Part shown: positions 3,349-21,653 of the stretch, one piece after another
Position numbering within the stretch: position 1 is the stretch's first letter
How the letters are laid out: every line of letters begins with the position of its first letter
Origin: a virus
Lineage: Duplodnaviria > Heunggongvirae > Uroviricota > Caudoviricetes
IMG/VR virus record: IMGVR_UViG_2565956720_000001
Direction: 5' to 3' (one strand)
DNA: 22,730 bases
The notes under the pieces: model-generated
The model's input: only the letters and a program-made list of their open reading frames with translations
Database searches by the model: none
Told to the model about the DNA's origin: nothing
Translations under genes and position numbers: made by a program

Positions 3349-6300
3349 TCACCGCATCACCGGATCCACCTGGTTTATTAGTGGCGCAATCCAGAACAGG
3401 TTATTGCCTGGTATCAGGGTTCGGACATTATGCACAATACGATCACCGGCATCACCATTCAACACTCCTGCGGTCACATCAATGATGCTATCCGCAAGAC
3501 CAAATGACGGTCCGAATAGAGATCCTACGAATCCACGACTGGCATACCTAGACTGTGTGCCAGTGCCAAATAAAGCCCCCAGCCCAACAGCACCACCAGT
3601 AGCCTTTTCAGCCATGTTGTTATATTCCATCAATGGCCCAAGAATACCGGATCTATCTATACCCTCAAGCACCAGCTTCTCTGGTGACCAGTCAACATTT
3701 TTCCCTTTCGATGCTTCTTTAAGCGCATAGACCAGTGAGCCAAGAGCAATCTGAAATGCAGTGCCATAATAAAATTGCGCAGTTCCTTCCTGTAGCCCAC
3801 CAAGTAGCGCACGGTTGTATGAAGCCGTTGTGAATGATTTAAACTGAAATATCGTTCGCCCCATTGGAGTACTCGCCCATAAAGGTGTGTCACCAATACC
3901 GGGGGTGATGATAGTGTTATTAACGTCTTTCAGAACCGCTGACTGGAATACTCCGGCAACGTACTGATCGTCCCATTTATCAAAGTTACCAATGTGCCAT
4001 CCATCAATTACCTCACCATGTTTCTCGAACTCACTGCGAATACGCGCAGCCATATTGTCGTTGATACCGAGTTTTGCCATGCGACGTGCAGAAAACGCAC
4101 CAGACAAAATACCGTCTGACGTGAGCATTCCGTTCATGGATTTGTTTATGTCATTAAATCGATCCATGAGTGTCAGCTTGCCGAAGGCATCAGTAATTCG
4201 CTCCATTCCTGCTTCGACTGCTGTTGTCCTGGAAGAACTGTCAACAAGATCACCAATTGCACGAGAACGTGAATGTAGTACAGTTTCCAATCCAATCCCC
4301 ATCTTCAACATCTCTTCTTTGCTGGCCTTAAATGCCGGTGATTGGGATATCTGAGAAGCATAGCCTTTCATGGTGTTACGGAAACCATTAACCATAACCC
4401 CTCTGGCCAGATCTGGAATAGCTGATACTGTCATTCCACCGAGTTTGGTCGTGAAGTTCACATCCCGCAGAAAAGCGCCAGCACGAACAAAAAACGAAGA
4501 CGGGTCATCAGGCATACCATATGTACCAACAAGACGATCGCGTAATGCTGTTATGTCTCTGAGATCATTTGCTCTTGATTTTGAAAGTCTGGACTGTTCT
4601 TTCCGTAATTCCTTTTCGTACTTTCGCATTAATGAATCGAGTTTACCCTGAGGAACAACTTCACCATTGCTCTCATAACGTGCTTTCAGATTTGCCACAC
4701 TTTCGTCATATTTCGCCTTTATTTTTTCAGGCACTTCCCGTAACAGACTGTCATATTCGTCTTCAATTAATTGCAGACGCTCAGCCATAGTTCGTTTGCC
4801 AAATGTTCTCGTCAACTCAATTTCTGCTGCCGCTTCACGGATATGACGTTGCAGCACGTAATTCACATCACTTTCGAGATAATCCCTGATAAGACTATCA
4901 GGCACATTTAATGTTCTTTCTTTCGTACTACCTGCGGCTTTTACAGAAAATACGCTGACAAAATCCTGTGGAACCTTAGCACCAGTAATTTTATTAATTA
5001 CGATATCCGCTGCAATTTCAGCATCCTCAGGATCCAGTGTTTTATTGCCTCTCGACCACCAGTCAACCAAAATACGTCGAAATTTATCGCGTTCACTGAT
5101 TATTTTTCCAACTTTATATATACGTGGGAAATAGCTTGCCTGACCTAATGCTTTCAGTTCTTCATCTGGCGGCAATAAACCAAGCTTTTGCATTTCAACT
5201 TTCACCCGATTTAATACAGTTCGCATCGCCTGCGCCGTTTCCTGAACAACAGGATTAGCATGAACATCACCGCTTCGCATCGCATTCCCAACCTGCTGAC
5301 GAAATGAATCAAAACTCATGTCACCACCATCAGCTTTATACTTTGCGTATGCCTGTTTATTTCCGACAACAACTGCAGCTTCTTCACGCTGCCATCCACG
5401 TGTACGGGTTTCTACAGCTATCGGTGTTTCAATCCCCCTTTCATTTCCTTTAAGGGTGAAATTATTTTCGGCTAACTCCAGCGTTGTTTTTCGCACTGTC
5501 TTTGACGGAGACTCCATTAACCTTGTCAAAGGAGTAAGATAGCTCCCTGCTTTCCATGCAGCCTTTCCAACCACCCCACCAGAAACAGGGGTTAAATCAT
5601 CCAGAGTCGCTGTATCAATTTTCATAGCACCAACACTACCACCATCGGAAAGCGAAGCGGCAGCCCTGTCAGTCGCTGATGTAATGCTCATATTATCAAG
5701 AGCATCAGCAACCTCACGTGTGGCTGCAGCCCGGACGGATGGCGAAAGCGCAACACCAGCACTGGCAAACACGCCGCTCATCATCGCACCCGCTGCAACG
5801 TGAGCGGCACTTTCACCCCATGAGCGTGTTATTTGCTGATTATTCAGTACAACCTCGCTTAATGCAGTACCGGCAGCACCAATCGCAATCTGTGAGCCAA
5901 TACGCGCCAGTGCCCCTCCTTGAGCACCGGGGATAAACATTGACGCAACAGTAACCGGATCCATTCCCGCAGCAATACTGGCAAGGGTTCCAACTACGCC
6001 AGCATCAGACAATAAACGTCTGTCTTCATTTTCATCATCTATCTGCTGCTTAATCCACGCCGTTTCCTCTGGCGATCGGGAATCTGCAAATTTCGCCCCC
6101 CAGTATTCATAACCGTGCAACTCATTTTTATCAGCATATGGGTTATAACCTTCGACCGGTTCAAACTGTCTGGCTGGGCGGAAAAAACCAGCCAGAATAT
6201 TGTTCTGTCGCATTGCAGCCCCCCATACGGAAGGCTCAGGTGGCAATGGCTCAGGATTAGCCCCTTCCGGAAGGGCAACATCAAACCCAGTTTGTTCCGG

Positions 6301-6363
6301 CAAAACATTACCTGACGGGATCAGTCCGTTATTAAGATCTTCAGCTTGTGCATAAACTGGCAT
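3349..6363 (-). CDS. Large internal virion / DNA-ejection protein (T7 gp16-position analogue, 1004 aa)
   Basis: Long ORF; its ATG (6363) overlaps the TAA of the upstream gene (TAATG). Last gene of the tubular-protein/core-protein series; Gly/Ala-rich N-terminal region. Confidence 0.75.
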   Translation of the reverse strand: MPVYAQAEDLNNGLIPSGNVLPEQTGFDVALPEGANPEPLPPEPSVWGAAMRQNNILAGFFRPARQFEPVEGYNPYADKNELHGYEYWGAKFADSRSPEETAWIKQQIDDENEDRRLLSDAGVVGTLASIAAGMDPVTVASMFIPGAQGGALARIGSQIAIGAAGTALSEVVLNNQQITRSWGESAAHVAAGAMMSGVFASAGVALSPSVRAAATREVADALDNMSITSATDRAAASLSDGGSVGAMKIDTATLDDLTPVSGGVVGKAAWKAGSYLTPLTRLMESPSKTVRKTTLELAENNFTLKGNERGIETPIAVETRTRGWQREEAAVVVGNKQAYAKYKADGGDMSFDSFRQQVGNAMRSGDVHANPVVQETAQAMRTVLNRVKVEMQKLGLLPPDEELKALGQASYFPRIYKVGKIISERDKFRRILVDWWSRGNKTLDPEDAEIAADIVINKITGAKVPQDFVSVFSVKAAGSTKERTLNVPDSLIRDYLESDVNYVLQRHIREAAAEIELTRTFGKRTMAERLQLIEDEYDSLLREVPEKIKAKYDESVANLKARYESNGEVVPQGKLDSLMRKYEKELRKEQSRLSKSRANDLRDITALRDRLVGTYGMPDDPSSFFVRAGAFLRDVNFTTKLGGMTVSAIPDLARGVMVNGFRNTMKGYASQISQSPAFKASKEEMLKMGIGLETVLHSRSRAIGDLVDSSSRTTAVEAGMERITDAFGKLTLMDRFNDINKSMNGMLTSDGILSGAFSARRMAKLGINDNMAARIRSEFEKHGEVIDGWHIGNFDKWDDQYVAGVFQSAVLKDVNNTIITPGIGDTPLWASTPMGRTIFQFKSFTTASYNRALLGGLQEGTAQFYYGTAFQIALGSLVYALKEASKGKNVDWSPEKLVLEGIDRSGILGPLMEYNNMAEKATGGAVGLGALFGTGTQSRYASRGFVGSLFGPSFGLADSIIDVTAGVLNGDAGDRIVHNVRTLIPGNNLFWIAPLINQVDPVMR

Positions 6364-9080
6364 TATTTAGATCCCCACGAAAAGTAATCTTTAAATTTGT
6401 CCATACGTTCGTTATGCAGGCGCTGATACTGCTCATCCAGAGCGCGATGCTTGTCTTTGAAGTTTCGTATAGCCTGTCCACGCATAATTTCTTCCTGCTC
6501 GTACTGCTCCCGTTCCTGCTGCATTTTCTTATAAGGTTCCCAATCTGCTAGTGATGGTTCCCAACGCATAGGACGCCCATGTTTGTTATAAAACGGCTGG
6601 ACCCGATCGATGCCATTTTCATCCTTAGTTCTTACCATAATGGCGTAATCACCATTACGGGGTGTTAACACGTCAGGGGTTATGAATAATTCTCCATTAA
6701 TACGACTCTCAGGGGTTTTTGTCTCAACTACAGGAGCATTACCTGACGTGATCCCAAGCAACGTCGGACTGGTTGTTATAATCTCTTTGCGCTCACCGTA
6801 CATCAGCCGTTCTTTTTCAGCTTTCCACTGCGCCGCCTGCCAGCCTGACGGCCCATATTGATAAAGCGCCTCCGGTGCATATTTCATAAACTGTGCATCT
6901 CCGTTAACCTCGCTGATACTCCAGGTGCGGGCTATCTGCTGGTTGGTCATTTGCTTCGCTACGTCAGCGTTACCACCAGCAACGCGGTAGTTAATGTCAT
7001 ACAGCGTCTGATAGTCATTACGGAATCTAGCTGCTTCCGGCGTCTGGTCATCCGCAGAAGGATCCCAACGGAACCACTGCGCCATATTGCTGACAGCAGA
7101 ATTCATCGCCTTGCTGCGATCATTTTTGTACTCTTTTGAACTCTGCGTTGATGCCAATTGAGCTTTAAGAGCATCGGTCTGGTTGTATGTCAGGTTCTGC
7201 GCCTGCTCGATAGCCGCATCAGCAGACATGCCAGAATCAGTTAGTTGCTTAACAGTCAGATAAAAACCCTGCATATCCTTCGGCATATTTCCAATAGATG
7301 CATTGTCTGTTTCATATAACCGACTAAACAGCTCCGCTGCATTTTTAACCACTTCCTGATTACTGGATCGGGATACTGCTGAAAGCTGCGTGATGACCTG
7401 CGAAGGCATTATGCCAGTCTGAGCCACAAGCCGAACAACCCCATCATGAGTGGAGGCATCATTAATACGAAAGTTCTGCGCCATTTCTGTGTAATCAGCA
7501 GCTTTCTGCATTGACTTGTTGCTTGGGTCTAATTTTTCACCTATTGTCAGCGCCTCATTGAATCTGCGTGAATCCCGTTGCGCCTGAATTGCTTCATTTG
7601 ATCTCTGAAGCAATGCAGACAATTTTCCGTAAGCATCGAGTTTTAACGCATAGTGAGGATCGTTAACCTCAGGCTTCACTTTCTGCATTTCTTCTTGCTG
7701 CTGAGAAGGAGGCAAATACTGAATTGCCTGGAATATTCTCGCGTTATCAATCGCTATATCCAGTTGATTGATTATTTTATCTGCGTTTTTTCCATACCCC
7801 CTGATGATGGTCTCCTGAGCCGGTATATAATCTGGAACCTCACCGTTATATAGCTGGGCCATGGTGTTATTAATAGCTGGCTCAAGCTGTTCTAATATTA
7901 ACTTCCTTTGCTTTTCTATCTGACTATTAGCAAGGTTATCTATTTGATAAATAGTCAGCGGATCCATTCCAGTTTTATTTTTTCTATATCGGGAAAGCCA
8001 CCCTTGTGTTTCTGATGGAAGATTTCGGATAAATTCTTCTTCTGATATTTCACCTTTACGTGGATCACCGACTTTGGCGATCAGTTTATCCACGTTACCC
8101 ATCCCCCAGTTATATGCTGCTCCGGTCAATATTTCTGAGCCGTACTTACCATACAGTTGATTTACATAGTCACTGGCAAGCATTTCATGCTGTTGTTCGT
8201 CCGTAGGGTTGTATTCAACGCCACGCTTGGCCGCCAGTTCTTTCCCTGTGCCCGGCATTAACTGGTATTTCCCCTGGGCCCTCTCTCCAGAAGATGTTTT
8301 CGGTCCTTCAAGAATACTACCATCAGGATTAAAATGACGATCACCTGATTCAACAAGGCGTATGGCACGCATGTCCATGCCTACAGAATCATTTTTCTGA
8401 AACAGACCATTTAGCCATCCTTCCGGATTAGCAGCGGCATAATTCTTCGCCCGCATTTCTGTGGCACTGCGATCATCACTTTCTATTTCTTCCAGAATGC
8501 GTTCTTGTGACCATCCCCTGGCAGCTCCATATCTGGCAATGGCTACCATTCTGGAATTTCTGGCTAAAGTGGCAGTTTGCGGGTCATTCCAGGCATCCGC
8601 TTCATTTTGTATCCATAATTTTCTCGTTGCCTGATATTGCTCATCTTCATAGGCATTTGTCTGCCCTATCTCATGTCTGAGAACTCCAGTACTGAACTGA
8701 ATTTTCTGTGTTCTGGCTTGTTGCAAAAACATATTTCTTGCTGCTTCATCAGTCAATGAAGCAGCTATTTCTTCCACATCCTGATCAAATCCAGATATGT
8801 ACTCTTGCCCCTTACCAATCGCATTTTTGCCTTGTTGTGCATAAAAACCGGTTTGAGGGTTATAAAGACGTTCATTGCTGCGCTGATTAAGCTGAAGGAT
8901 GGCATCCTGAGACAATGCAACATTCGCTTTCTGCCTGGCTTCACCATATGCCACCGCATACTGATCTGCGACATTCGCCAGCACCTGACCTGCTTGAGGA
9001 ACATCGAAGGTCTGAAAACCACCGGTTTGCACACCACGACTTTGCACCTGGCGTCCGGATGTAGTAGGAACAACAGGCAT
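6363..9080 (-). CDS. Internal virion protein with a lytic transglycosylase (SLT) domain (905 aa)
   Basis: ATG at 9080 overlaps the upstream TGA (ATGA). Residues about 240-330 carry the SLT motifs: E-S (RLVESGDRHFNPDG), GKYQLMPGT, AAYNWGMG. Confidence 0.85.
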   Translation of the reverse strand: MPVVPTTSGRQVQSRGVQTGGFQTFDVPQAGQVLANVADQYAVAYGEARQKANVALSQDAILQLNQRSNERLYNPQTGFYAQQGKNAIGKGQEYISGFDQDVEEIAASLTDEAARNMFLQQARTQKIQFSTGVLRHEIGQTNAYEDEQYQATRKLWIQNEADAWNDPQTATLARNSRMVAIARYGAARGWSQERILEEIESDDRSATEMRAKNYAAANPEGWLNGLFQKNDSVGMDMRAIRLVESGDRHFNPDGSILEGPKTSSGERAQGKYQLMPGTGKELAAKRGVEYNPTDEQQHEMLASDYVNQLYGKYGSEILTGAAYNWGMGNVDKLIAKVGDPRKGEISEEEFIRNLPSETQGWLSRYRKNKTGMDPLTIYQIDNLANSQIEKQRKLILEQLEPAINNTMAQLYNGEVPDYIPAQETIIRGYGKNADKIINQLDIAIDNARIFQAIQYLPPSQQQEEMQKVKPEVNDPHYALKLDAYGKLSALLQRSNEAIQAQRDSRRFNEALTIGEKLDPSNKSMQKAADYTEMAQNFRINDASTHDGVVRLVAQTGIMPSQVITQLSAVSRSSNQEVVKNAAELFSRLYETDNASIGNMPKDMQGFYLTVKQLTDSGMSADAAIEQAQNLTYNQTDALKAQLASTQSSKEYKNDRSKAMNSAVSNMAQWFRWDPSADDQTPEAARFRNDYQTLYDINYRVAGGNADVAKQMTNQQIARTWSISEVNGDAQFMKYAPEALYQYGPSGWQAAQWKAEKERLMYGERKEIITTSPTLLGITSGNAPVVETKTPESRINGELFITPDVLTPRNGDYAIMVRTKDENGIDRVQPFYNKHGRPMRWEPSLADWEPYKKMQQEREQYEQEEIMRGQAIRNFKDKHRALDEQYQRLHNERMDKFKDYFSWGSK

Positions 9081-16102: not shown

Positions 16103-16399
16103 TCACTCCTGTTCACTGGCCTCTTTGGCCATCTTCAAATACTGTTCAGGGCAATGCGCCATAACGCGCTGAAACAGTTCCAGCGCCAGATTGCGTTGCC
16201 CCTCATTAAATGCCATTGCCATAGCGTCCATCGGTGAGATAGCGGAAAACACACGGCCTTTCTCCAGCACCGACCAGACAACGCGACGCCCCTGTTCACT
16301 GCTCATGACAAAGCGAATGTCATCAATTTCACGCTGTGCCATGTCACGTTGCTTACGGGCGTTTTCTTCTTTCAGTTGATCATCTTCGTAATCTGTCAT
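16103..16399 (-). CDS. Hypothetical head-assembly protein (98 aa)
   Basis: ATG at 16399; its TGA (16105-16103) lies 2 nt before the scaffold ATG; acidic, helical composition. Confidence 0.65.
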   Translation of the reverse strand: MTDYEDDQLKEENARKQRDMAQREIDDIRFVMSSEQGRRVVWSVLEKGRVFSAISPMDAMAMAFNEGQRNLALELFQRVMAHCPEQYLKMAKEASEQE

Positions 16400-16404
16400 T
16401 GTGA

Positions 16405-18075
16405 TTACCCACCCTGACCACTAACTGCATTCGCCATAGCTGACAAAACACTCGGATCCGAAGTTTTAGCTTCGCTTAGCGTCTTGGCGCCCTGTGCCGC
16501 CGCCATTCCCATCGCCATCATTTGTTGCTGCTGTTGCTGCTGTGCCCGTTGCTGGCGAGCCTGCTCAACCTGTTCCTGCGGAACAATGACGGTTGGAGAC
16601 ACTCCGGACATATCAGCGAATGCATCGATCGCCTGATCAACATTGAGTTTGTCGAGAGCTTCTGGTTTCGCTTGCGCAAGTTGACCAATGAAGTTGACCG
16701 TAGACGCCAGACTGGACAGGCCGATAGACTTCTGCGCCTGAGCCATGACGGAAATGTATTCGACCTTCAGGGGCATACCTTCCATCGCGTCAGGCGGTGG
16801 CGGCAGCATGTTTTTACGCACCATCATCGAGAAAGCGCGGTCAATGAGAGGATTAAGACATTCGTCGTTCAGACGCTCCAGAACCGGCCCCAACATCAGA
16901 AGTTTTTCTTCTTTCATTTCGATCACCGCTTCAACAGGCATCGAGCGGGTATTGATGTTCTGCAACATCATGAACAGATCGACAAAGTAGGCGCTGTTAA
17001 TGATTTGACGAGTGTCCTGAATGTCTGCCACCAAATCTGCTGTACTGGGGTTAACCAGATAAGCAGGCCTGAAGCCATCCTGACCAGTAATCTGATCGAT
17101 ATACGTGATGTCGCCAGGAAGAAGGGAGGCGCGCTGATTCTTGAGGGAAGTCGGAGCAACCATCGGCGGATTGGTGGCTTTATCAATCAACTGCGACTTG
17201 CGCTTCTGGAGAAGCTGCAATGCCTTAACAGGTCCAAGCGCCAGCATACCCGGGCATGATGATCCATAAACATCTTCGCCGTTAACTTCCCAGCGCGGAG
17301 CCATAATTGGAAACTCATCGAATCCGGACTCACGCAACAACTTGTCGTTATCGCCACCAACCTCGTAATAAACCGATTTGAATGGCTTGTTCTTGCTATC
17401 CAGCTTCGATGTATCGCGGTCAATGTTCGGGTAAACCGAATGCATCACTTCAATCCACTTCTCGTAGGTGCCGCTTTCCCACATGCTTTTTACGGATTCG
17501 CTGACGTTATTTAGCCCGAACTCCTGAACAAGCTGACGAACAGTCATAGAGAACTTGCGAAAACAGGTGTCCACACTGCCACGAGGTGAGTTAGCTAGGT
17601 AGTAACTGCCTATCGGGAATGGCATTGTGCGAATGATGTCCTCGTCATCCTCCAGCACTGCCATTGCACCAGTGCTGTATGTGCCGAGGCTTCCGTATAA
17701 CTGCGGCAGAGACTGATAGAGATTCGACTTATTGAACATATCGTTCATGCGGTTCTGCACCGCCTCAAGCCACAACTTAACAGGGCCATAATCCATCATT
17801 TCAGGATCTGGCGTAGCCAGGCGAAACCACGGACGCGCGGGGCTTGTGATGCCTGACATCATGCCGCTGGCGAGAGTGCGCGCCGCCATAGTCCCGGTCG
17901 AATCAATAATGCGTGTATTGCGTCGATCGTTACGGTTGACCTCAGAAGTCAGAAAGCGGGAACCACGTGGGTTGATGTAATCACTCAACTCGCGCCAGTG
18001 CGGCTCGAACGACTGACGCTCGCTTTCAAGTTGTGCGAACTGTTTGTTCAATCGCTCTTTAGTTGTTTCCGCCAT
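16405..18075 (-). CDS. Portal (head-to-tail connector) protein, T7 gp8-like (556 aa)
   Basis: ATG at 18075 with GGAG upstream. C-terminal tail …QQRAQQQQQQQMMAMGMAAAQGA… resembles the remembered T7 gp8 C-terminus (…QKMAQQSMQMGMDNGAAALAQGMAAQ…); size and position fit. Confidence 0.85.
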   Translation of the reverse strand: MAETTKERLNKQFAQLESERQSFEPHWRELSDYINPRGSRFLTSEVNRNDRRNTRIIDSTGTMAARTLASGMMSGITSPARPWFRLATPDPEMMDYGPVKLWLEAVQNRMNDMFNKSNLYQSLPQLYGSLGTYSTGAMAVLEDDEDIIRTMPFPIGSYYLANSPRGSVDTCFRKFSMTVRQLVQEFGLNNVSESVKSMWESGTYEKWIEVMHSVYPNIDRDTSKLDSKNKPFKSVYYEVGGDNDKLLRESGFDEFPIMAPRWEVNGEDVYGSSCPGMLALGPVKALQLLQKRKSQLIDKATNPPMVAPTSLKNQRASLLPGDITYIDQITGQDGFRPAYLVNPSTADLVADIQDTRQIINSAYFVDLFMMLQNINTRSMPVEAVIEMKEEKLLMLGPVLERLNDECLNPLIDRAFSMMVRKNMLPPPPDAMEGMPLKVEYISVMAQAQKSIGLSSLASTVNFIGQLAQAKPEALDKLNVDQAIDAFADMSGVSPTVIVPQEQVEQARQQRAQQQQQQQMMAMGMAAAQGAKTLSEAKTSDPSVLSAMANAVSGQGG

Positions 18076-18089
18076 TTCAATGACTCCGG

Positions 18090-18296
18090 TTACTGACCAA
18101 GCAGCGTTTTACCGCTGGTCTTAGCGGTTGATGTGTCGCCCTGAGAACCGGTAAGCAGCGTAGAACTACGACCAGCAGCAGCGCGACGGCGACGAGTTTC
18201 TTCGTCGCGGGCATCAACAACGGCGGCATCCTGCTCCTGTGGTGCTGCCTGAACTTCTGGTGTTGCAGGCACTGATGGTGAGCTACCCATGCACAT
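18090..18296 (-). CDS. Small hypothetical protein (68 aa, low-complexity, likely disordered) upstream of the portal gene
   Basis: ATG at 18296 preceded by GGAGTCATTGA, the same 11-mer that precedes the portal ATG. Preferred over the overlapping 79-aa frame (18077..18316), which is Leu/His/Arg-rich and has no ribosome-binding site. Confidence 0.5.
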   Translation of the reverse strand: MCMGSSPSVPATPEVQAAPQEQDAAVVDARDEETRRRRAAAGRSSTLLTGSQGDTSTAKTSGKTLLGQ

Positions 18297-18386
18297 ATCA
18301 ATGACTCCGTACGCAATTAAATTATTACCAATTTAACCACATATGATTTATTTATCGTAGATAGTTGACATTTAACGCACAAATTA

Positions 18387-18401
18387 TTACCTTTCAGGTA
18401 A
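18387..18401. promoter_or_regulatory. Palindrome TTACC-N5-GGTAA (copy 2), about 20 bp after a TTGACA hexamer
   Basis: TTACC (18387-18391), tttca, GGTAA (18397-18401); TTGACA at 18365-18370. The direct repeat AAATTATTACC also occurs at 18319-18329. Confidence 0.4.
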
Positions 18402-18725
18402 CCAAAGAGTTCATTCCGGTTACTAACCTGACTGGCTTGTCGTTAAATTGAACAGGTGGAGTGAGCTTTTATTTTGAGCAGTACGGCGTATGGCACATGC
18501 GCCGATAGCGGTCTGGATACGTTTAAGGGGCACCCTCCCTTGCTCGGGCAAACGAACCAGGTAGCCGGAATGTGCAAGTCACCGTTGGTAGGATAGCGGA
18601 TTCAGGGACTCACCATCCTGGCGATTCGGTGTGACGCCTCGGAAGAGACGAGGGTACAACGATGAGAGCATTTATGGAGCCGCGACAAAGTGTGGCGCCT
18701 TAACAGGCTAAGTGCTCTCAGCGTT

Positions 18726-18802
18726 GTGGCATTAGCTCAGCTGGACAGAGCAACCGCCTTCTAAGCGGTTGGTCGCAGGTTCGAATCCTGCATGCCACGC
18801 CA
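18726..18802 (+). tRNA. tRNA-Arg (anticodon UCU, reads AGA), with encoded CCA
   Basis: Manually folded cloverleaf: acceptor GTGGCAT/ATGCCAC, D-stem GCTC/GAGC, anticodon stem ACCGC/GCGGT with loop CTTCTAA (anticodon TCT), variable loop TGGTC, T-arm GCAGG-TTCGAAT-CCTGC, discriminator G plus CCA. Confidence 0.9.
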
Positions 18803-18846
18803 GAATCACGCCTAAGGACCGTGATGCCAGAAGTTCCAGGGGCTTG

Positions 18847-18888
18847 GCGGTGATGGTTTCCCTTGAAGGACTATCACCGCCCTTTTTA
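18847..18888 (+). terminator. Intrinsic terminator downstream of the tRNA
   Basis: 9-bp stem GGCGGTGAT / ATCACCGCC followed by CTTTTTA. Confidence 0.5.
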
Positions 18889-18965
18889 CAGCAGGACGCC
18901 ATTGCGATGACTTCATGCTGTAAACCAGTACAGCCACGGAAGGCATAACTCATTGCTTCCAGTTC

Positions 18966-18990
18966 GCCCGGTTCGCCGGGCATTTTTTTA
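18966..18990 (+). terminator. Second intrinsic terminator (or attenuator) abutting the ribosome-binding site of the 123-aa ORF
   Basis: GCCCGG-TTCG-CCGGGC hairpin followed by ATTTTTTTA; the AGGTGAG ribosome-binding site of the next ORF starts at the end of the T-tract. Confidence 0.55.
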
Positions 18991-19000
18991 AGGTGAGATT

Positions 19001-19372
19001 ATGAACGACCAGCAAATCGAAAAAGAAATCGTTGAGAAAGGCAAAACTGCTCCTCGCGTTACGCCAGACCATATCGAAAGCATTATTGCTCAGGAGGCAT
19101 ATTTCACAGCAGAGGATGGTGCCTTTGGCAAAGCCATAAAAGCGAAACATACTGGCGGAGAGGTAAACTACCAGCCGCACGAATCACTTTCTCTGCTGAC
19201 GTTCTGCGTCCTGGTGCTGCGCAACGGCTTCACCGTCACCGGAGAGAGCGCCTGTGCAAGCCCGGAAAACTTTGATGCAGAAATTGGTCGGAAGATTGCC
19301 CGGCAGAATGCTGTAAACAAAATCTGGATGCTTGAAGGTTACTTGCTGAAGCAGAAGTTAAGCGAGCAATAA
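19001..19372 (+). CDS. Hypothetical protein (123 aa) carried with the tRNA on the strand opposite the late genes
   Basis: ATG at 19001 with AGGTGA upstream; coherent composition; followed by the GTGACATGTCAC palindrome and a terminator. No family assigned. Confidence 0.7.
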   Translation: MNDQQIEKEIVEKGKTAPRVTPDHIESIIAQEAYFTAEDGAFGKAIKAKHTGGEVNYQPHESLSLLTFCVLVLRNGFTVTGESACASPENFDAEIGRKIARQNAVNKIWMLEGYLLKQKLSEQ

Positions 19373-19376
19373 CACC

Positions 19377-19388
19377 GTGACATGTCAC
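19377..19388. repeat. 12-bp perfect palindrome GTGACATGTCAC, copy 2
   Basis: Exact copy, 4 nt after the stop of the 123-aa ORF and 4 nt before the terminator hairpin. Confidence 0.8.
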
Positions 19389-19392
19389 AAAC

Positions 19393-19420
19393 AGCCAGCC
19401 TATGAGCTGGCTTTGTTTTA
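19393..19420 (+). terminator. Intrinsic terminator between the convergent 123-aa ORF and the large terminase gene (possibly bidirectional)
   Basis: AGCCAGC-CTATGA-GCTGGCT hairpin followed by TTGTTTTA on the plus strand; an A/T-rich flank is also present on the other side. Confidence 0.55.
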
Positions 19421-19462
19421 TCCTCATCAGAGGATATCAACGACATTATCCCCACCAGCGGA

Positions 19463-20938
19463 TTAAGCATAAGGGTCATAATCCGTTATGGCCCTTCCCT
19501 GCTGGCTTTGCTGTCCTGGTATATTTATGCGTTTCGAGACCGGGAACGCAAACGTCAGCAGTAGCGCATCGCCTTTACCAGGAGAACGCCCAAGTCGCTC
19601 TTTGATATCTTCCTTCGGTTCGATAACGATTTTACCGTCCACTCGAACTTTGTACTCTGCTGCCGACAGGTCGTCCGCTGTTTCCTGGTCATCAAGCATG
19701 CCGCCCAGCCTCAGCCATGTCTTGCATGAATTGAACATCTCCCCACGCTTGTTGAGCATCTGCGGGTCAGTAGACGCGCCACCGAACGGAACAAGTTGCC
19801 ATGTACGACCCCATCCGTCACCGATTGACTTCAGACCGGTTCCGTAACCGAAGTCGATGAACACCGCGTCAGCCTGATACTGGTCTTCAAAGTCAGCGAT
19901 ACGCTTCGCCATAATCAGATCGTCGGTAGTCTTGTTGCCAGTCCACAGCACCTTACTGTGTAGCCCCTGCCGCAGGTATATCACCGCGTCATCAACGCCT
20001 GAATATGCCGGGTCAACACCGATTATCACCGGAGCATGCGCCACCTGCGCAGCGGTTACCACCCGTTTCATTGCCTCATCAGTAAGACCGGTAGGGATAA
20101 ACTGCAATTCAGATGCATCAGGGAATATGCCGCGCACACGGATTTTAACGAAGTCGCTGTCTTCCCCGTAGTCATCAACCCATTTCTGCAACTGCTGTTT
20201 GTTAGTGCCTTCCACCGTTCGGCTGTCAATCTGCGCAGTTTTCCAGCGGTGTTTATATTTGCGGAAACATTCGCGAAAACGCCCGGTGTTACGTGTAGGG
20301 TTTCCGAACGCCACCCAGATAATCTCAGTGTCTTCGTCCGTAAGCGCACCCTCAGCAACTTCCCACACCAGATCCGCAATGTTCGACGCTTCATCGAATA
20401 CCACGATGATGCGTTTGCGCTCGTTGTGTAGTCCGGCGAATGCCTCAGTGTTGTGCTCAGACCAGGGTATTGCGTCAGCCCGCCACCGCTTGTCGTGCCC
20501 AGGGTCATTGCTGTACATCGCAGTAGCGGTACAGGTAAACCAGTCTTTCGTGATAGCAAGGTTCGACCACTTGATAATTTCCGGCCAGGTCTTCGTTCGT
20601 AGCTGGTTGTCGGTGTTGGCGGTCACCACGATCTTACAATCCTCGCAAGTGGACATGCCCCAGTTGATCAGCATTGAGATGAATGCGGATTTACCAATAC
20701 CGTGACCAGAAGCGCGTGCCAGCATAAGCGGCTGATAGCGCGTCTCTGGATTCTGCAGGTGATCACGTATCTCTCGGAACGCATCAGCCTGCCACTGACG
20801 TGGGCCGGTAGCATGTGCCAGTTCAGTCCCCTCTTCCCCCCACGGGAACGCATAGAGGGCATAGCCAAGCGGATCGTGAGTGAACCCTGCAATATCCTCG
20901 ATCAACTGCTCTTCAGGAGATAACGCTGTATCTGTCAC
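19463..20938 (-). CDS. Terminase large subunit (491 aa)
   Basis: Long ORF directly after the small-subunit gene, with GTG start overlapping its stop (GTGA). Size and neighbourhood are typical of terminase large subunits; no motif was verified by search. Confidence 0.85.
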   Translation of the reverse strand: MTDTALSPEEQLIEDIAGFTHDPLGYALYAFPWGEEGTELAHATGPRQWQADAFREIRDHLQNPETRYQPLMLARASGHGIGKSAFISMLINWGMSTCEDCKIVVTANTDNQLRTKTWPEIIKWSNLAITKDWFTCTATAMYSNDPGHDKRWRADAIPWSEHNTEAFAGLHNERKRIIVVFDEASNIADLVWEVAEGALTDEDTEIIWVAFGNPTRNTGRFRECFRKYKHRWKTAQIDSRTVEGTNKQQLQKWVDDYGEDSDFVKIRVRGIFPDASELQFIPTGLTDEAMKRVVTAAQVAHAPVIIGVDPAYSGVDDAVIYLRQGLHSKVLWTGNKTTDDLIMAKRIADFEDQYQADAVFIDFGYGTGLKSIGDGWGRTWQLVPFGGASTDPQMLNKRGEMFNSCKTWLRLGGMLDDQETADDLSAAEYKVRVDGKIVIEPKEDIKERLGRSPGKGDALLLTFAFPVSKRINIPGQQSQQGRAITDYDPYA

Positions 20939-21531
20939 TGATTACCATCCTGACGTTCTTTGAGTCGCTTCCTGGCTGCCGCTATGCGATCAGCAATTGT
21001 CACATTCACATTAACATCCAGGCGTTCTTTGAATGCGTTGACGTCGACGTGCTTACCAATCAGTTCGAGGTTCTTCACCTTGTCAGGCCATTTAATTTTT
21101 TTGAGGATTGTCTCTATCGAATCCTCGTTCATGTTCATGATGGTCGATGACAGATCAAAGCCACTAAGCGTAGTGCGCCAGATTTTCGGCCACTCGCGGA
21201 TTGGCTTAAGGCTCCCATCGTCGTTGAGGATATCAATCACGTCCATCTGGTCGATCTCCACCAGGCGCATGAGAACGTAATCGGCACTGACGCGCATTCG
21301 TTTGTTGCGCTCCTCCATCAACTCGGCAATCCGTTTTTGAATGCGTTCATCGCGCATCATGACACTGGCTTTAACTGCCGCTGTATTTGGGGAGAATCCT
21401 GCGTTAATCGCTGCCTGAGTCTGGTTTTCAGGCGTTTTGATGTATGACTGGCAATAAGCCTCCTGCATTGCGGTTAGTGGCTTAAATTGCGTTGATTTGC
21501 GTTTATAGGTTTTAGGTTCAGCAGGCATCAT
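20935..21531 (-). CDS. Terminase small subunit (about 198 aa)
   Basis: Start placed at ATG 21531 (tandem ATG ATG preceded by AGGGTGG). The track's longer ORF begins with TTG at 21609 and would include a terminator hairpin. Basic, helical N-terminus; immediately precedes and overlaps the large subunit gene. Confidence 0.75.
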   Translation of the reverse strand: MMPAEPKTYKRKSTQFKPLTAMQEAYCQSYIKTPENQTQAAINAGFSPNTAAVKASVMMRDERIQKRIAELMEERNKRMRVSADYVLMRLVEIDQMDVIDILNDDGSLKPIREWPKIWRTTLSGFDLSSTIMNMNEDSIETILKKIKWPDKVKNLELIGKHVDVNAFKERLDVNVNVTIADRIAAARKRLKERQDGNQ

Positions 21532-21548
21532 AACCACCCTGGTAATTG

Positions 21549-21563
21549 TTACCGTTGTGGTAA
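21549..21563. promoter_or_regulatory. Palindrome TTACC-N5-GGTAA (copy 3), with an extra GGTAA half-site at 21541-21545, just upstream of the small terminase start
   Basis: GGTAA (21541-21545), ttg, TTACC (21549-21553), gttgt, GGTAA (21559-21563); 18 bp from the terS ATG. Could be an operator or a terminase-recognition element. Confidence 0.4.
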
Positions 21564-21573
21564 TAGTACCATG

Positions 21574-21600
21574 CAAAATAAAGCCGCCATAGTTGGCGGC
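21574..21600 (-). terminator. Intrinsic terminator between the accessory operon and the terminase genes (minus strand)
   Basis: On the minus strand: GCCGCC-AACTAT-GGCGGC hairpin followed by TTTATTTTG. Confidence 0.45.
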
Positions 21601-21641
21601 AGTATTCAAAACCCATCAAATTCATCATGCATAATCTACTC

Positions 21642-21653
21642 GTGACATGTCAC
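21642..21653. repeat. 12-bp perfect palindrome GTGACATGTCAC, copy 3
   Basis: Exact copy overlapping the TGA stop of the 21650..21988 ORF, about 40 bp upstream of a terminator hairpin on the minus strand. Confidence 0.8.

Follow-up and report, generated by a model that had tools for sequence, protein, structure and literature searches.

A structured RNA of ~250 nucleotides (nt), which we refer to as X-RNA, is encoded on the plus strand at positions 18480-18726 of the Caudoviricetes sequence IMGVR_UViG_2565956720_000001 (IMG/VR; 22,730 nt, the whole of which is called the window here). It is one of three cargo modules that lie behind one promoter region in a plus-strand insert within the minus-strand late operon. 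The others are a tRNA-Arg(UCU) and a gene of the Acb4 family (PF13876), and these two are kept apart by two intrinsic terminators. We are highly confident that X-RNA exists and has the fold described below. A first-pass annotation of the window had recognized the insert as a separate accessory unit flanked by portal and terminase genes, with which we agree, and had listed 18403-18725 as unexplained. That description holds in so far as the stretch is without annotation in every record inspected and has no match in Rfam; however, it contains an independent structured RNA gene. No other part of the unit is as conserved or as widespread as this 320-base-pair (bp) stretch, and the downstream protein cargo differs between relatives. 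What is the function of X-RNA? We tentatively propose a scheme that, taken as a whole, falls a little short of an even call: early transcription of the unit from a repressor-controlled promoter, release of X-RNA by RNase P, an accessory role for X-RNA in trans, and a cyclic-nucleotide sponge and an AGA-decoding tRNA as companions.

The proposed structure has seven helices, one of which is a candidate pseudoknot:

18480-18657, plus strand: X-RNA 5ʹ domain, defined by covariation and by covariance model R1
18484-91/18497-504, plus strand: helix H1 of the 5ʹ domain
18511-16/18557-62 plus 18520-23/18551-54, plus strand: helix P2 of the 5ʹ domain
18560-78, plus strand: near-invariant strand GGUAGCCGGAAUGUGCAAG of the 5ʹ domain
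18582-86/18595-99, plus strand: variable hairpin P3 of the 5ʹ domain
18605-08/18616-19, plus strand: helix P4 of the 5ʹ domain
18611-14/18628-31, plus strand: candidate pseudoknot of the 5ʹ domain, P4-loop CACC with GGUG
18637-41/18649-53, plus strand: helix P5 of the 5ʹ domain, CCUCG-GAAGAGA-CGAGG
18657-18726, plus strand: X-RNA 3ʹ domain P6, a CAACG-A-UGAGAGCAUU / AAGUGCUCUCA-G-CGUUG stem with a hypervariable insert inside

The fold was tested on a MAFFT alignment (A3) of 38 copies less than 96% identical, which had not been fitted to any structure. The proposed pairs are canonical in 91.9% of cells, as compared with 32-45% when the partners are slid by 1-3 columns. Both sides of the pair have changed in 19 of 36 pairs, a number reached by none of 500 shuffles, and 127 individual cells show such double changes versus 38 ± 7 in shuffles. 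P6 is a stem of 15-16 bp (18657-61/18722-26 and 18663-72/18711-20) that in the window has a much more stable fold than its shuffles (z = -5.7). Among 100 distinct copies it is paired in 82% of cells (29-48% when slid), with 81 both-side-changed cells versus 34 in shuffles. The pair that closes it, C18657-G18726, is formed with the tRNA's first base. The inserts inside P6 are wholly different between phages, with T-arm-like hairpins in some (L008, L100), and P1-type copies retain the 5ʹ domain only. In one copy (L058), the insert contains a type I hammerhead core at 384-430, CUGAAGAG...CGAAAC...GUC (Rfam local search, 28.7 bits, E = 4.7e-5). The hammerhead is not a general feature of X-RNA, since no other copy has one.

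R1, our covariance model of the 5ʹ domain, scores 150.8 bits on the window. Most other full-length copies score 131-169 bits and the lowest 103.2; epsilon15, which has a truncated remnant, scores 36.8 bits, and HK022 gives no match. A search of Rfam 15 at gathering score matched only the tRNA, plus a sar RNA elsewhere in the window, and nothing on X-RNA. When 18250-19500 was searched at E ≤ 10, the only matches on 18480-18725 were at chance level, 13-14 bits at the 5ʹ edge. X-RNA holds no conserved open reading frame (ORF), as frames are broken by indels. For the same reason, and because there is no Shine-Dalgarno sequence, we rejected a small conserved peptide encoded by the invariant AUGGCACAUG. 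An alternative helix, CCGGA (18565-69) with UUCGG (18625-29), was also rejected because 18625-27 varies without compensation. Both sides of a possible GCACAU/AUGUGC pairing between loop strands barely vary. In mEp460, a “hypothetical protein” is annotated over X-RNA on the opposite strand (gp37, L005 2443-2811); this coding sequence (CDS) is probably spurious.

Numerous G-U pairs set X-RNA on the plus strand, the same strand as the tRNA. This bears on the possibility that the conserved block acts as DNA, for instance as a site of recombination or attachment, as an origin or as a signal for packaging. Such a role would be in keeping with the sharp mosaic boundaries of the block, its horizontal spread between unrelated phages and the tRNA-like fragments nearby. 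However, the many G-U and U-G pairs would be A-C mismatches on the opposite strand, the compensatory changes maintain intramolecular helices, the pseudoknot included, and the orientation is always that of the tRNAs and the downstream genes. We consider a DNA element very improbable.

X-RNA is widely distributed. A sensitive BLAST search of phage genomes showed that 18317-18725 is common to Uetakeviruses of E. coli, Salmonella, Klebsiella and Enterobacter. Within this, 18483-18725 is 80-85% identical to unannotated DNA in P1, P7, D6, SJ46 and RCS47, and likewise in the lambdoid phages mEp460, cdtI, 2H10, Shiga toxin 2c (Stx2c) converters and Stx2a_WGPS2. Scanning IMG/VR for the invariant 16-mer GGTAGCCGGAATGTGC yielded at least 120 loci; among the matches listed there are 105-106 distinct copies, with a median pairwise identity of ~60% over 300 nt. 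A search with an independent anchor found the exact 16-mer missing from only 5 of ~100 true copies; hence, the strand is nearly invariant. A match to X-RNA is found in 2153 of the 5426 complete E. coli genomes (in 1472 at ≥80% coverage), and no annotated feature lies beneath it among the matches listed. In a set of one genome per species, exact copies of a 19-mer are almost confined to genera of the Enterobacterales (Escherichia, Citrobacter, Klebsiella, Enterobacter, Kosakonia, Kluyvera, Phytobacter, Buttiauxella and Ca. Erwinia dacicola); two metagenome bins labelled Bacillota/Oscillospiraceae also have it. Outside the Enterobacterales range, an X-RNA of 152.7 bits lies downstream of a cI-like gene in Stenotrophomonas phage vB_SmeS_BUCT709 (L259 1940-2093).

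The genomic contexts fall into three groups. In P1, X-RNA lies between trnI (tRNA-Ile2, CAT) and ban, inside the C1-controlled ban operon with its C1 operators. In mEp460 and Stx2a_WGPS2, ~780 bp of non-coding DNA separate cI from the first early-left gene; X-RNA is located in this gap, which has no N gene. The mEp460 copy follows the cI terminator, ~50 nt past two TTGC-N7-GCAA operator-like repeats; more broadly, X-RNA is a median of 157 nt downstream of a same-strand cI-like gene in 61 of 122 loci. In the third group, the Uetakeviruses, X-RNA is the constant part of the insert. SPN1S has X-RNA, the tRNA-Arg and a 64-amino-acid (aa) ORF as cargo; BUCT711 has X-RNA, the tRNA-Arg and a 263-aa coiled-coil protein; Enterobacter phage BUCT554 has X-RNA, no tRNA-Arg, and a 61-aa ORF together with an Acb4 homologue; and epsilon15 has an X-RNA remnant, no tRNA-Arg, and an Acb4 homologue. 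The epsilon15 remnant (L003 1792-1863) consists of H1 and the start of P2, and the leader there has a 126-nt insertion relative to the window. Together, these comparisons indicate that X-RNA is an autonomous, horizontally exchanged module that occurs in three kinds of temperate phage unrelated to one another: Uetakeviruses, P1-like phages and N-less lambdoid/Stx2 phages.

X-RNA is dispensable. The first early-left protein of mEp460 is encoded, identical in sequence, at 80 viral loci, 44 with X-RNA and 36 without. The 36 loci that lack X-RNA keep ~185-380 nt of the downstream leader, with the same hairpins and the same Z domain (see below), joined to other immunity regions. In epsilon15, too, there is only a remnant of X-RNA.

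The tRNA module directly follows X-RNA in the window:

18726-18802, plus strand: tRNA-Arg, anticodon UCU, with encoded CCA (ARAGORN, tct at position 35; Rfam RF00005)

That the tRNA is genuine, as the first-pass annotation had claimed subject to a tRNA predictor, is borne out by the ARAGORN call and by an RF00005 score of 71.7 bits against a gathering score of 29. The 3ʹ GCCA is encoded by the gene (18799-18802), and a tRNA-Arg is annotated at the equivalent site in RefSeq and several phage records. In phiV10, a “hypothetical protein” CDS on the opposite strand covers the tRNA/terminator region (PhiV10p04, L001 3151-3402) and is probably spurious. The genes of the window contain 6.3 AGA per 1000 codons (11% of Arg codons), ~3 times the E. 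coli K-12 average of ~2 per 1000, and 23 of the 39 AGA codons are in the two largest ORFs (3349-6363 and 6363-9080). This count is compatible with codon supplementation, as had been suggested, and the tRNA would supplement AGA decoding. Like the argN/argO-type tRNA-Arg(UCU) of Stx phages, it is a rare-codon tRNA of a temperate coliphage with AGA-enriched genes; unlike them, it is fused head-to-tail to a structured RNA, the last helix of which is closed by the first base of the tRNA.

Is the unit then simply a tRNA moron that supplies AGA decoding, with an attenuated ORF behind it and a 320-bp tRNA precursor leader devoid of function? The tRNA moron and the attenuated ORF were the earlier reading, and the genuine tRNA, the AGA enrichment and the conservation of the second terminator (below) all fit such a unit. 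However, the 320 bp is more widespread than either the tRNA or the ORF. Among 125 loci, X-RNA is followed by tRNA-Arg(UCU) in 27 and lies 14-19 nt after tRNA-Ile2 in 17, so that a tRNA is directly adjacent on the same strand in 44; the others, about two thirds, have no tRNA. BUCT554 has X-RNA but no tRNA, compensatory changes extend across seven helices, and the leader part of the reading is already contradicted. We consider this explanation improbable. The first-pass annotation had also missed the Acb4 family of the ORF, and codon supply is not the sole purpose of the unit.

How might the 3ʹ end of X-RNA be made? In the tRNA-less loci, the sequence past GUU again starts with GUGG(U/C). In 65 of 82 such loci, this strand is closed 50-200 nt further on by a hairpin, typically GCCGG-AGAUCAGCA-CCGGC, and then (C)CACCACAAC; we refer to the resulting minihelix as Z. 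The arrangement GUGGUGA...hairpin-CCACCACAAC is present in 65 of 82 tRNA-less loci versus 7-11 in shuffles, counted with the motif CCACA[ACT][ACT], which replaced a looser acceptor-plus-hairpin search. Since a 5ʹ acceptor strand comes first, then a hairpin and then a 3ʹ acceptor strand, its parts are arranged in the acceptor/T-arm layout recognized by RNase P. Since X-RNA is followed either by an abutting tRNA or by an acceptor/T-arm-like Z, we propose that RNase P makes its 3ʹ end, by cutting at the 5ʹ end of the tRNA or of the lambdoid Z minihelix that takes the place of the tRNA.

The early-left leaders of N-less lambdoid/Stx2 phages (L005 2734-3060 and its equivalents in L176-L255) are themselves mosaics of RNA modules. 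In order, they contain a 5ʹ hairpin; an optional X-RNA; the domain Z, which is GUGGUGA...GCCGGAGAUCAGCACCGGCCACCACAAC; a hairpin with a long loop, GGCGGUACCAG...CUGGUACCGC, and after it UCUUUUUACAA, which is boxA-like; and a 17-bp hairpin immediately ahead of the first gene.

Terminators accompany the insert:

18846-18889, plus strand: terminator 1, a 14-bp stem (18846-18881) then CTTTTT, which ends the part with X-RNA and the tRNA
18966-18989, plus strand: terminator 2, GCCCGG-UUCG-CCGGGC (18966-18981) with six G-C pairs, then U7
18990-18997, plus strand: Shine-Dalgarno sequence AAGGUGAG, immediately 3ʹ of terminator 2
19001-19372, plus strand: 123-aa ORF, PF13876 (Phage_gp49_66), the Acb4 anti-CBASS sponge family (CBASS, cyclic oligonucleotide-based antiphage signaling system)
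19377-19388, either strand: palindrome GTGACATGTCAC, which has two further exact copies in the window
19393-19420, plus strand: terminator 3, hairpin 19393-19412, z = -3.2, annotated as a terminator in phiV10

In a consensus scan, all three predicted sites have the form of intrinsic terminators, a G+C-rich hairpin followed by a U-tract. Terminator 3 lies between the convergent Acb4-like and large-terminase genes. The hairpins and T-tracts are where the first-pass annotation had placed them, the second touching the ribosome-binding site, and the succession of 123-aa ORF, palindrome and third terminator is likewise as it had described. The stem of terminator 2 is followed by ATTTTTTT, which runs directly into AAGGTGAG-N5-ATG. 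The leader between terminator 1 and this ATG is conserved in Acb4-bearing Uetakeviruses except BUCT554, in which a 61-aa ORF is directly upstream of the Acb4-type gene and the leader is unalignable. In epsilon15 and L097, the stem changes from CCCGG/CCGGG to CCCAC/GUGGG, and the hairpin and U-tract are kept. Because the leader is conserved and the stem change is compensatory, terminator 2 is under selection and hence functional in some sense. It may act as an attenuator of the 123-aa ORF, as had been proposed; the sole candidate for an anti-Shine-Dalgarno pairing, CAUAACUCAUU with the ribosome-binding site of the Acb4-like gene in the minimum-free-energy fold, is not conserved in L021 or L139 and was rejected. 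The Acb4-like protein would be made only from transcripts that read through terminator 2.

The two terminators between X-RNA and the ORF raise the possibility that X-RNA is a cis-acting leader that makes RNA polymerase resist intrinsic terminators and Rho, like HK022 put or Bacillus EAR. Such an antiterminator would permit the Acb4 gene to be expressed here, and likewise ban in P1 and, in N-less lambdoid phages, the early-left genes. Several observations fit: X-RNA is constantly upstream of co-oriented genes, in long untranslated early leaders; its lambdoid hosts lack an N gene in the interval from cI to the early-left genes; two hairpin/U-tract structures also lie 3ʹ of X-RNA in mEp460; and the P5 loop, GAAGAGA, is similar to the lambda nutL boxB loop, GAAGA. 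However, 36 of the 80 sister phages keep identical terminator hairpins and genes without X-RNA, and in epsilon15 both terminator 2 and the Acb4-like gene persist although only the remnant is present. There is a single copy per phage and none on the PR side. The P1 copy is 2.3 kb from the promoter, directly before ban. In a strict scan, a same-strand terminator was found downstream of X-RNA at 51 of 108 loci, as compared with 81 of the 108 on the upstream side and 69 for the opposite strand, so that downstream terminators are no more frequent than in these controls. Lastly, a 250-nt RNA with a hypervariable insert is unlike the ~70-nt put RNA, and R1 matches nothing in HK022. We consider a cis-acting antiterminator unlikely, although, as the main rival of our scheme, it deserves to be taken seriously. 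Since X-RNA is optional among sister phages, present in single copy, remote from the P1 promoter and not associated with an excess of terminators, we regard it, therefore, as an optional cargo module rather than a core regulatory element.

The same leader position and downstream terminators, together with the complex conserved fold, the near-invariant unpaired strands and the pseudoknot, would also suit a riboswitch-like sensor, in which the 5ʹ domain binds a metabolite or host factor and gates downstream transcription or processing. However, no alternative terminator/antiterminator pairing engages the conserved domain, in the window X-RNA is separated from the first terminator by an entire tRNA, the genes downstream have no relationship from one context to another, and a hypervariable P6 is atypical of an expression platform. 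These points make a riboswitch highly improbable.

Returning to the proposed trans-acting RNA, transcription of the unit would start at the promoter region upstream of X-RNA:

18365-18393, plus strand: putative sigma-70 promoter, -35 TTGACA (18365-18370), 17-nt spacer, weak -10 TACCTT (18388-18393)
18386-18402, either strand: operator-like palindrome ATTACCTTTCAGGTAAC, overlapping the -10/+1 region
18395-18479, plus strand: Uetakevirus-specific leader, conserved in phiV10 and epsilon15

The promoter block is nearly identical in phiV10 and epsilon15; it was not called by the consensus scan and comes from our reading of the sequence. By position, ATTACCTTTCAGGTAAC appears to align with a protein_bind feature of epsilon15, “repressor, lysogeny”, which is itself an annotator’s prediction. 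A second operator-like copy, ATTACCTTAAAGGTAAA, is located at 242-258 and overlaps a TTGCAG-17-TACTAT promoter. The two palindromes share the form ATTACCTT-N-AGGTAA, and each is on a promoter-like site. The leader at 18395-18479 folds no better than shuffles (z = -1.4) and is outside the module common to P1 and the lambdoid phages. Judged from sequence and from the annotation of others, the X-RNA transcripts of all three phage types appear to be repressor-controlled and early, and transcription of the unit would resemble that of the ban operon in P1 and of the PL transcript in lambdoid phages. In X-RNA’s early transcripts, weak matches to DicF (24-28 bits, less than the gathering score) occur at L081 802-854 and L100 4098-4150, and the P1 record annotates a “dicF-like region” at 68791-68892 in the ban operon.

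The protein cargo of the insert points to immune evasion. The 123-aa ORF matches PF13876 over profile positions 1-82 of 82 with 121.5 bits (cutoff 27; E = 2e-35). It is named “Gp49 family protein” in RefSeq, and PHROGs lists the family as of unknown function. Among all Protein Data Bank (PDB) sequences, its sole match by phmmer is 9e4w_A, “anti-CBASS 4 (Acb4)” (E = 0.0067), in which ORF residues 67-108 align with Acb4 39-80, 42 residues across the ligand-pocket region. Mapped through this alignment, the Acb4 contact residues F48, F62 and I66 are kept and several others are replaced (see below). Family membership of the ORF, as judged by profile score, is firm and its ligand specificity less so. 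SPO1 Acb4 is the founding member of PF13876, with 1,331 homologues; as a tetramer, it sequesters 3ʹ3ʹ-cyclic GMP-AMP (3ʹ3ʹ-cGAMP) and related CBASS signals, and 3ʹ3ʹ-cGAMP was bound by all eight of the homologues assayed (10.1101/2024.12.30.630793). The ORF belongs to the same family as the Acb4 of Bacillus phage SPO1 and aligns with it across the ligand-pocket region; it differs in being ~26 residues longer at the N-terminus and in several contact residues. A single-sequence AlphaFold model of the ORF was poor (pLDDT 46.6), and PADLOC gave no defense-system match for the two small ORFs. We propose that the Acb4-like protein would sequester CBASS-type cyclic dinucleotides. It is not an obligate partner of X-RNA, since the two co-occur only in some Uetakeviruses (16 loci).

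What, then, would the released X-RNA do? We propose that it acts in trans, with a dispensable accessory function during early lytic growth, either host take-over or immune evasion. Such a role fits its neighbors, a rare-codon tRNA and a cyclic-nucleotide sponge. A more specific version, which we regard as possible but on balance rather unlikely, is that X-RNA represents a new class of RNAs that are cut by RNase P out of the early transcripts of temperate enterobacterial phages, P1 and Stx2 phages included, and that act in trans, either to decoy or inhibit a host factor or an immune sensor or as a self-assembling, ROOL/GOLLD-like particle, with the hypervariable P6 as a slot for interchangeable RNA cargo (tRNA-like arms or a hammerhead, for instance).

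A number of observations weigh against the proposal. With regard to processing, the Z domain of mEp460 folds no better than shuffles, a generic search for a 7-bp acceptor plus hairpin was nonspecific (40 of 82 real loci versus 25-37 in shuffles), and the Z loop, at 9 nt, departs from a canonical T-loop; what suggests RNase P is resemblance in sequence and structure. As for the role, we found no expression, end-mapping or phenotype data for X-RNA in open-access text, and the case for a trans-acting or anti-defense function is its neighborhood and its dispensability. X-RNA is always 5ʹ of co-oriented genes, often with a hairpin/U-tract between, as a cis leader would be. It is found in temperate phages only, and a general anti-defense RNA need not be so limited. 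In the Acb4-like protein, the contact residues E49, V56, Y57, N63 and T70 are replaced (E49 by T, Y57 by A and T70 by I).

Several known RNAs resemble X-RNA in part. GOLLD and ROOL are phage RNAs of unknown function that are often near tRNA islands and have variable linkers, sometimes holding tRNAs (PMC12286853). Like them, X-RNA is borne by phages and prophages and adjoins tRNAs; it is also dispensable, and its insert is hypervariable and in some copies includes T-arm-like hairpins; unlike them, it is ~250 nt rather than 500-800 nt or more, is restricted to Enterobacterales phages and matches neither Rfam model. With no homology between them, GOLLD and ROOL are the nearest analogues of X-RNA in kind, and it would be a member of the same loose class. 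The put RNA of HK022, a phage without N, forms two stem-loops in ~70 nt and occurs at PL as well as at PR (PMC9378689). X-RNA shares with put the position of a structured RNA just downstream of an early promoter in N-less lambdoid phages, and differs in being ~250 nt, one per phage and optional among sister phages. Identity with put was rejected, as neither motif nor R1 matches were found in the HK022 immunity/early region. A lambda-type nut site was rejected too: the P5 loop is boxB-like, but there is no N-like ORF from cI to the early-left genes and X-RNA is far larger.

Comparable layouts exist elsewhere. The phage T4 species 1 and 2 RNAs (rnaC/rnaD) are stable non-tRNA RNAs of a tRNA cluster that are transcribed together with the tRNAs and released by tRNA-processing enzymes, and in MALAT1/mascRNA a tRNA-like element sets the 3ʹ end of the upstream non-coding RNA via RNase P. 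X-RNA has no known sequence relationship to either, and its own processing is a proposal. Searches of open-access full text for X-RNA sequence strings, for P1 ban-leader RNAs and for phage anti-defense RNAs found no earlier description. In our assessment, X-RNA is a new family of RNAs, of a kind that is loosely known.

Over 18080-19470, the window is 95% identical to phage phiV10 and to O157 typing phages 9 and 10, and a prophage of E. coli Br_54_kylling is 99.7% identical. Given this high identity, the window is best described as a phiV10/epsilon15-like (Uetakevirus) prophage. The minus-strand genes include a Bbp19-like gene and the following:

16405-18075, minus strand: portal (PF12236)
18090-18296, minus strand: small ORF (phrog_831)
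19463-20938, minus strand: large terminase, so named in phiV10, epsilon15 and RefSeq records
20935-21609, minus strand: small terminase (PF03592)

Two other elements of the window deserve mention. The 12-nt palindrome GTGACATGTCAC occurs in exact copies at 897-908, 19377-19388 and 21642-21653, with a one-mismatch copy at 16336-16347; none would be expected by chance. Two of the exact copies adjoin terminator hairpins 3ʹ of accessory genes (the ant-like ORF 947-1891 and the Acb4-like ORF), and the third, ~35 nt upstream of where the small terminase starts, immediately precedes a -10-like hexamer, TAGATT. A regulator of late transcription may bind to the palindrome. The sar RNA match (RF00262, 1893-1960, plus strand; 45.2 bits versus a gathering score of 43) is located just upstream of a 314-aa minus-strand ORF (947-1891) and is antisense to its 5ʹ leader. 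The arrangement resembles antisense control of the P22 immI type, here acting on an antirepressor-like gene of a Uetakevirus.

What does X-RNA mean for the biology of these phages? A strongly covarying RNA of ~250 nt has matches in 27-40% of the complete genomes of E. coli, and textbook phages (P1, Stx2 converters and phiV10/SPN1S) carry it, without there being an Rfam family for it; in the records inspected, it is unannotated or mis-annotated as small hypothetical proteins. X-RNA offers a tractable E. coli/P1 model for the role of structured RNAs that travel with phage tRNAs, for which the hosts of GOLLD and ROOL are less convenient. The mosaic early-left leaders of lambdoid phages bear on the control of early transcription in N-less Stx2 phages. 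For the Uetakeviruses, the Acb4-family ORF recasts the insert between terminase and portal as a probable early accessory/immune-evasion cassette, beyond codon supply, and predicts that phiV10-like prophages of pathogenic E. coli would evade CBASS.

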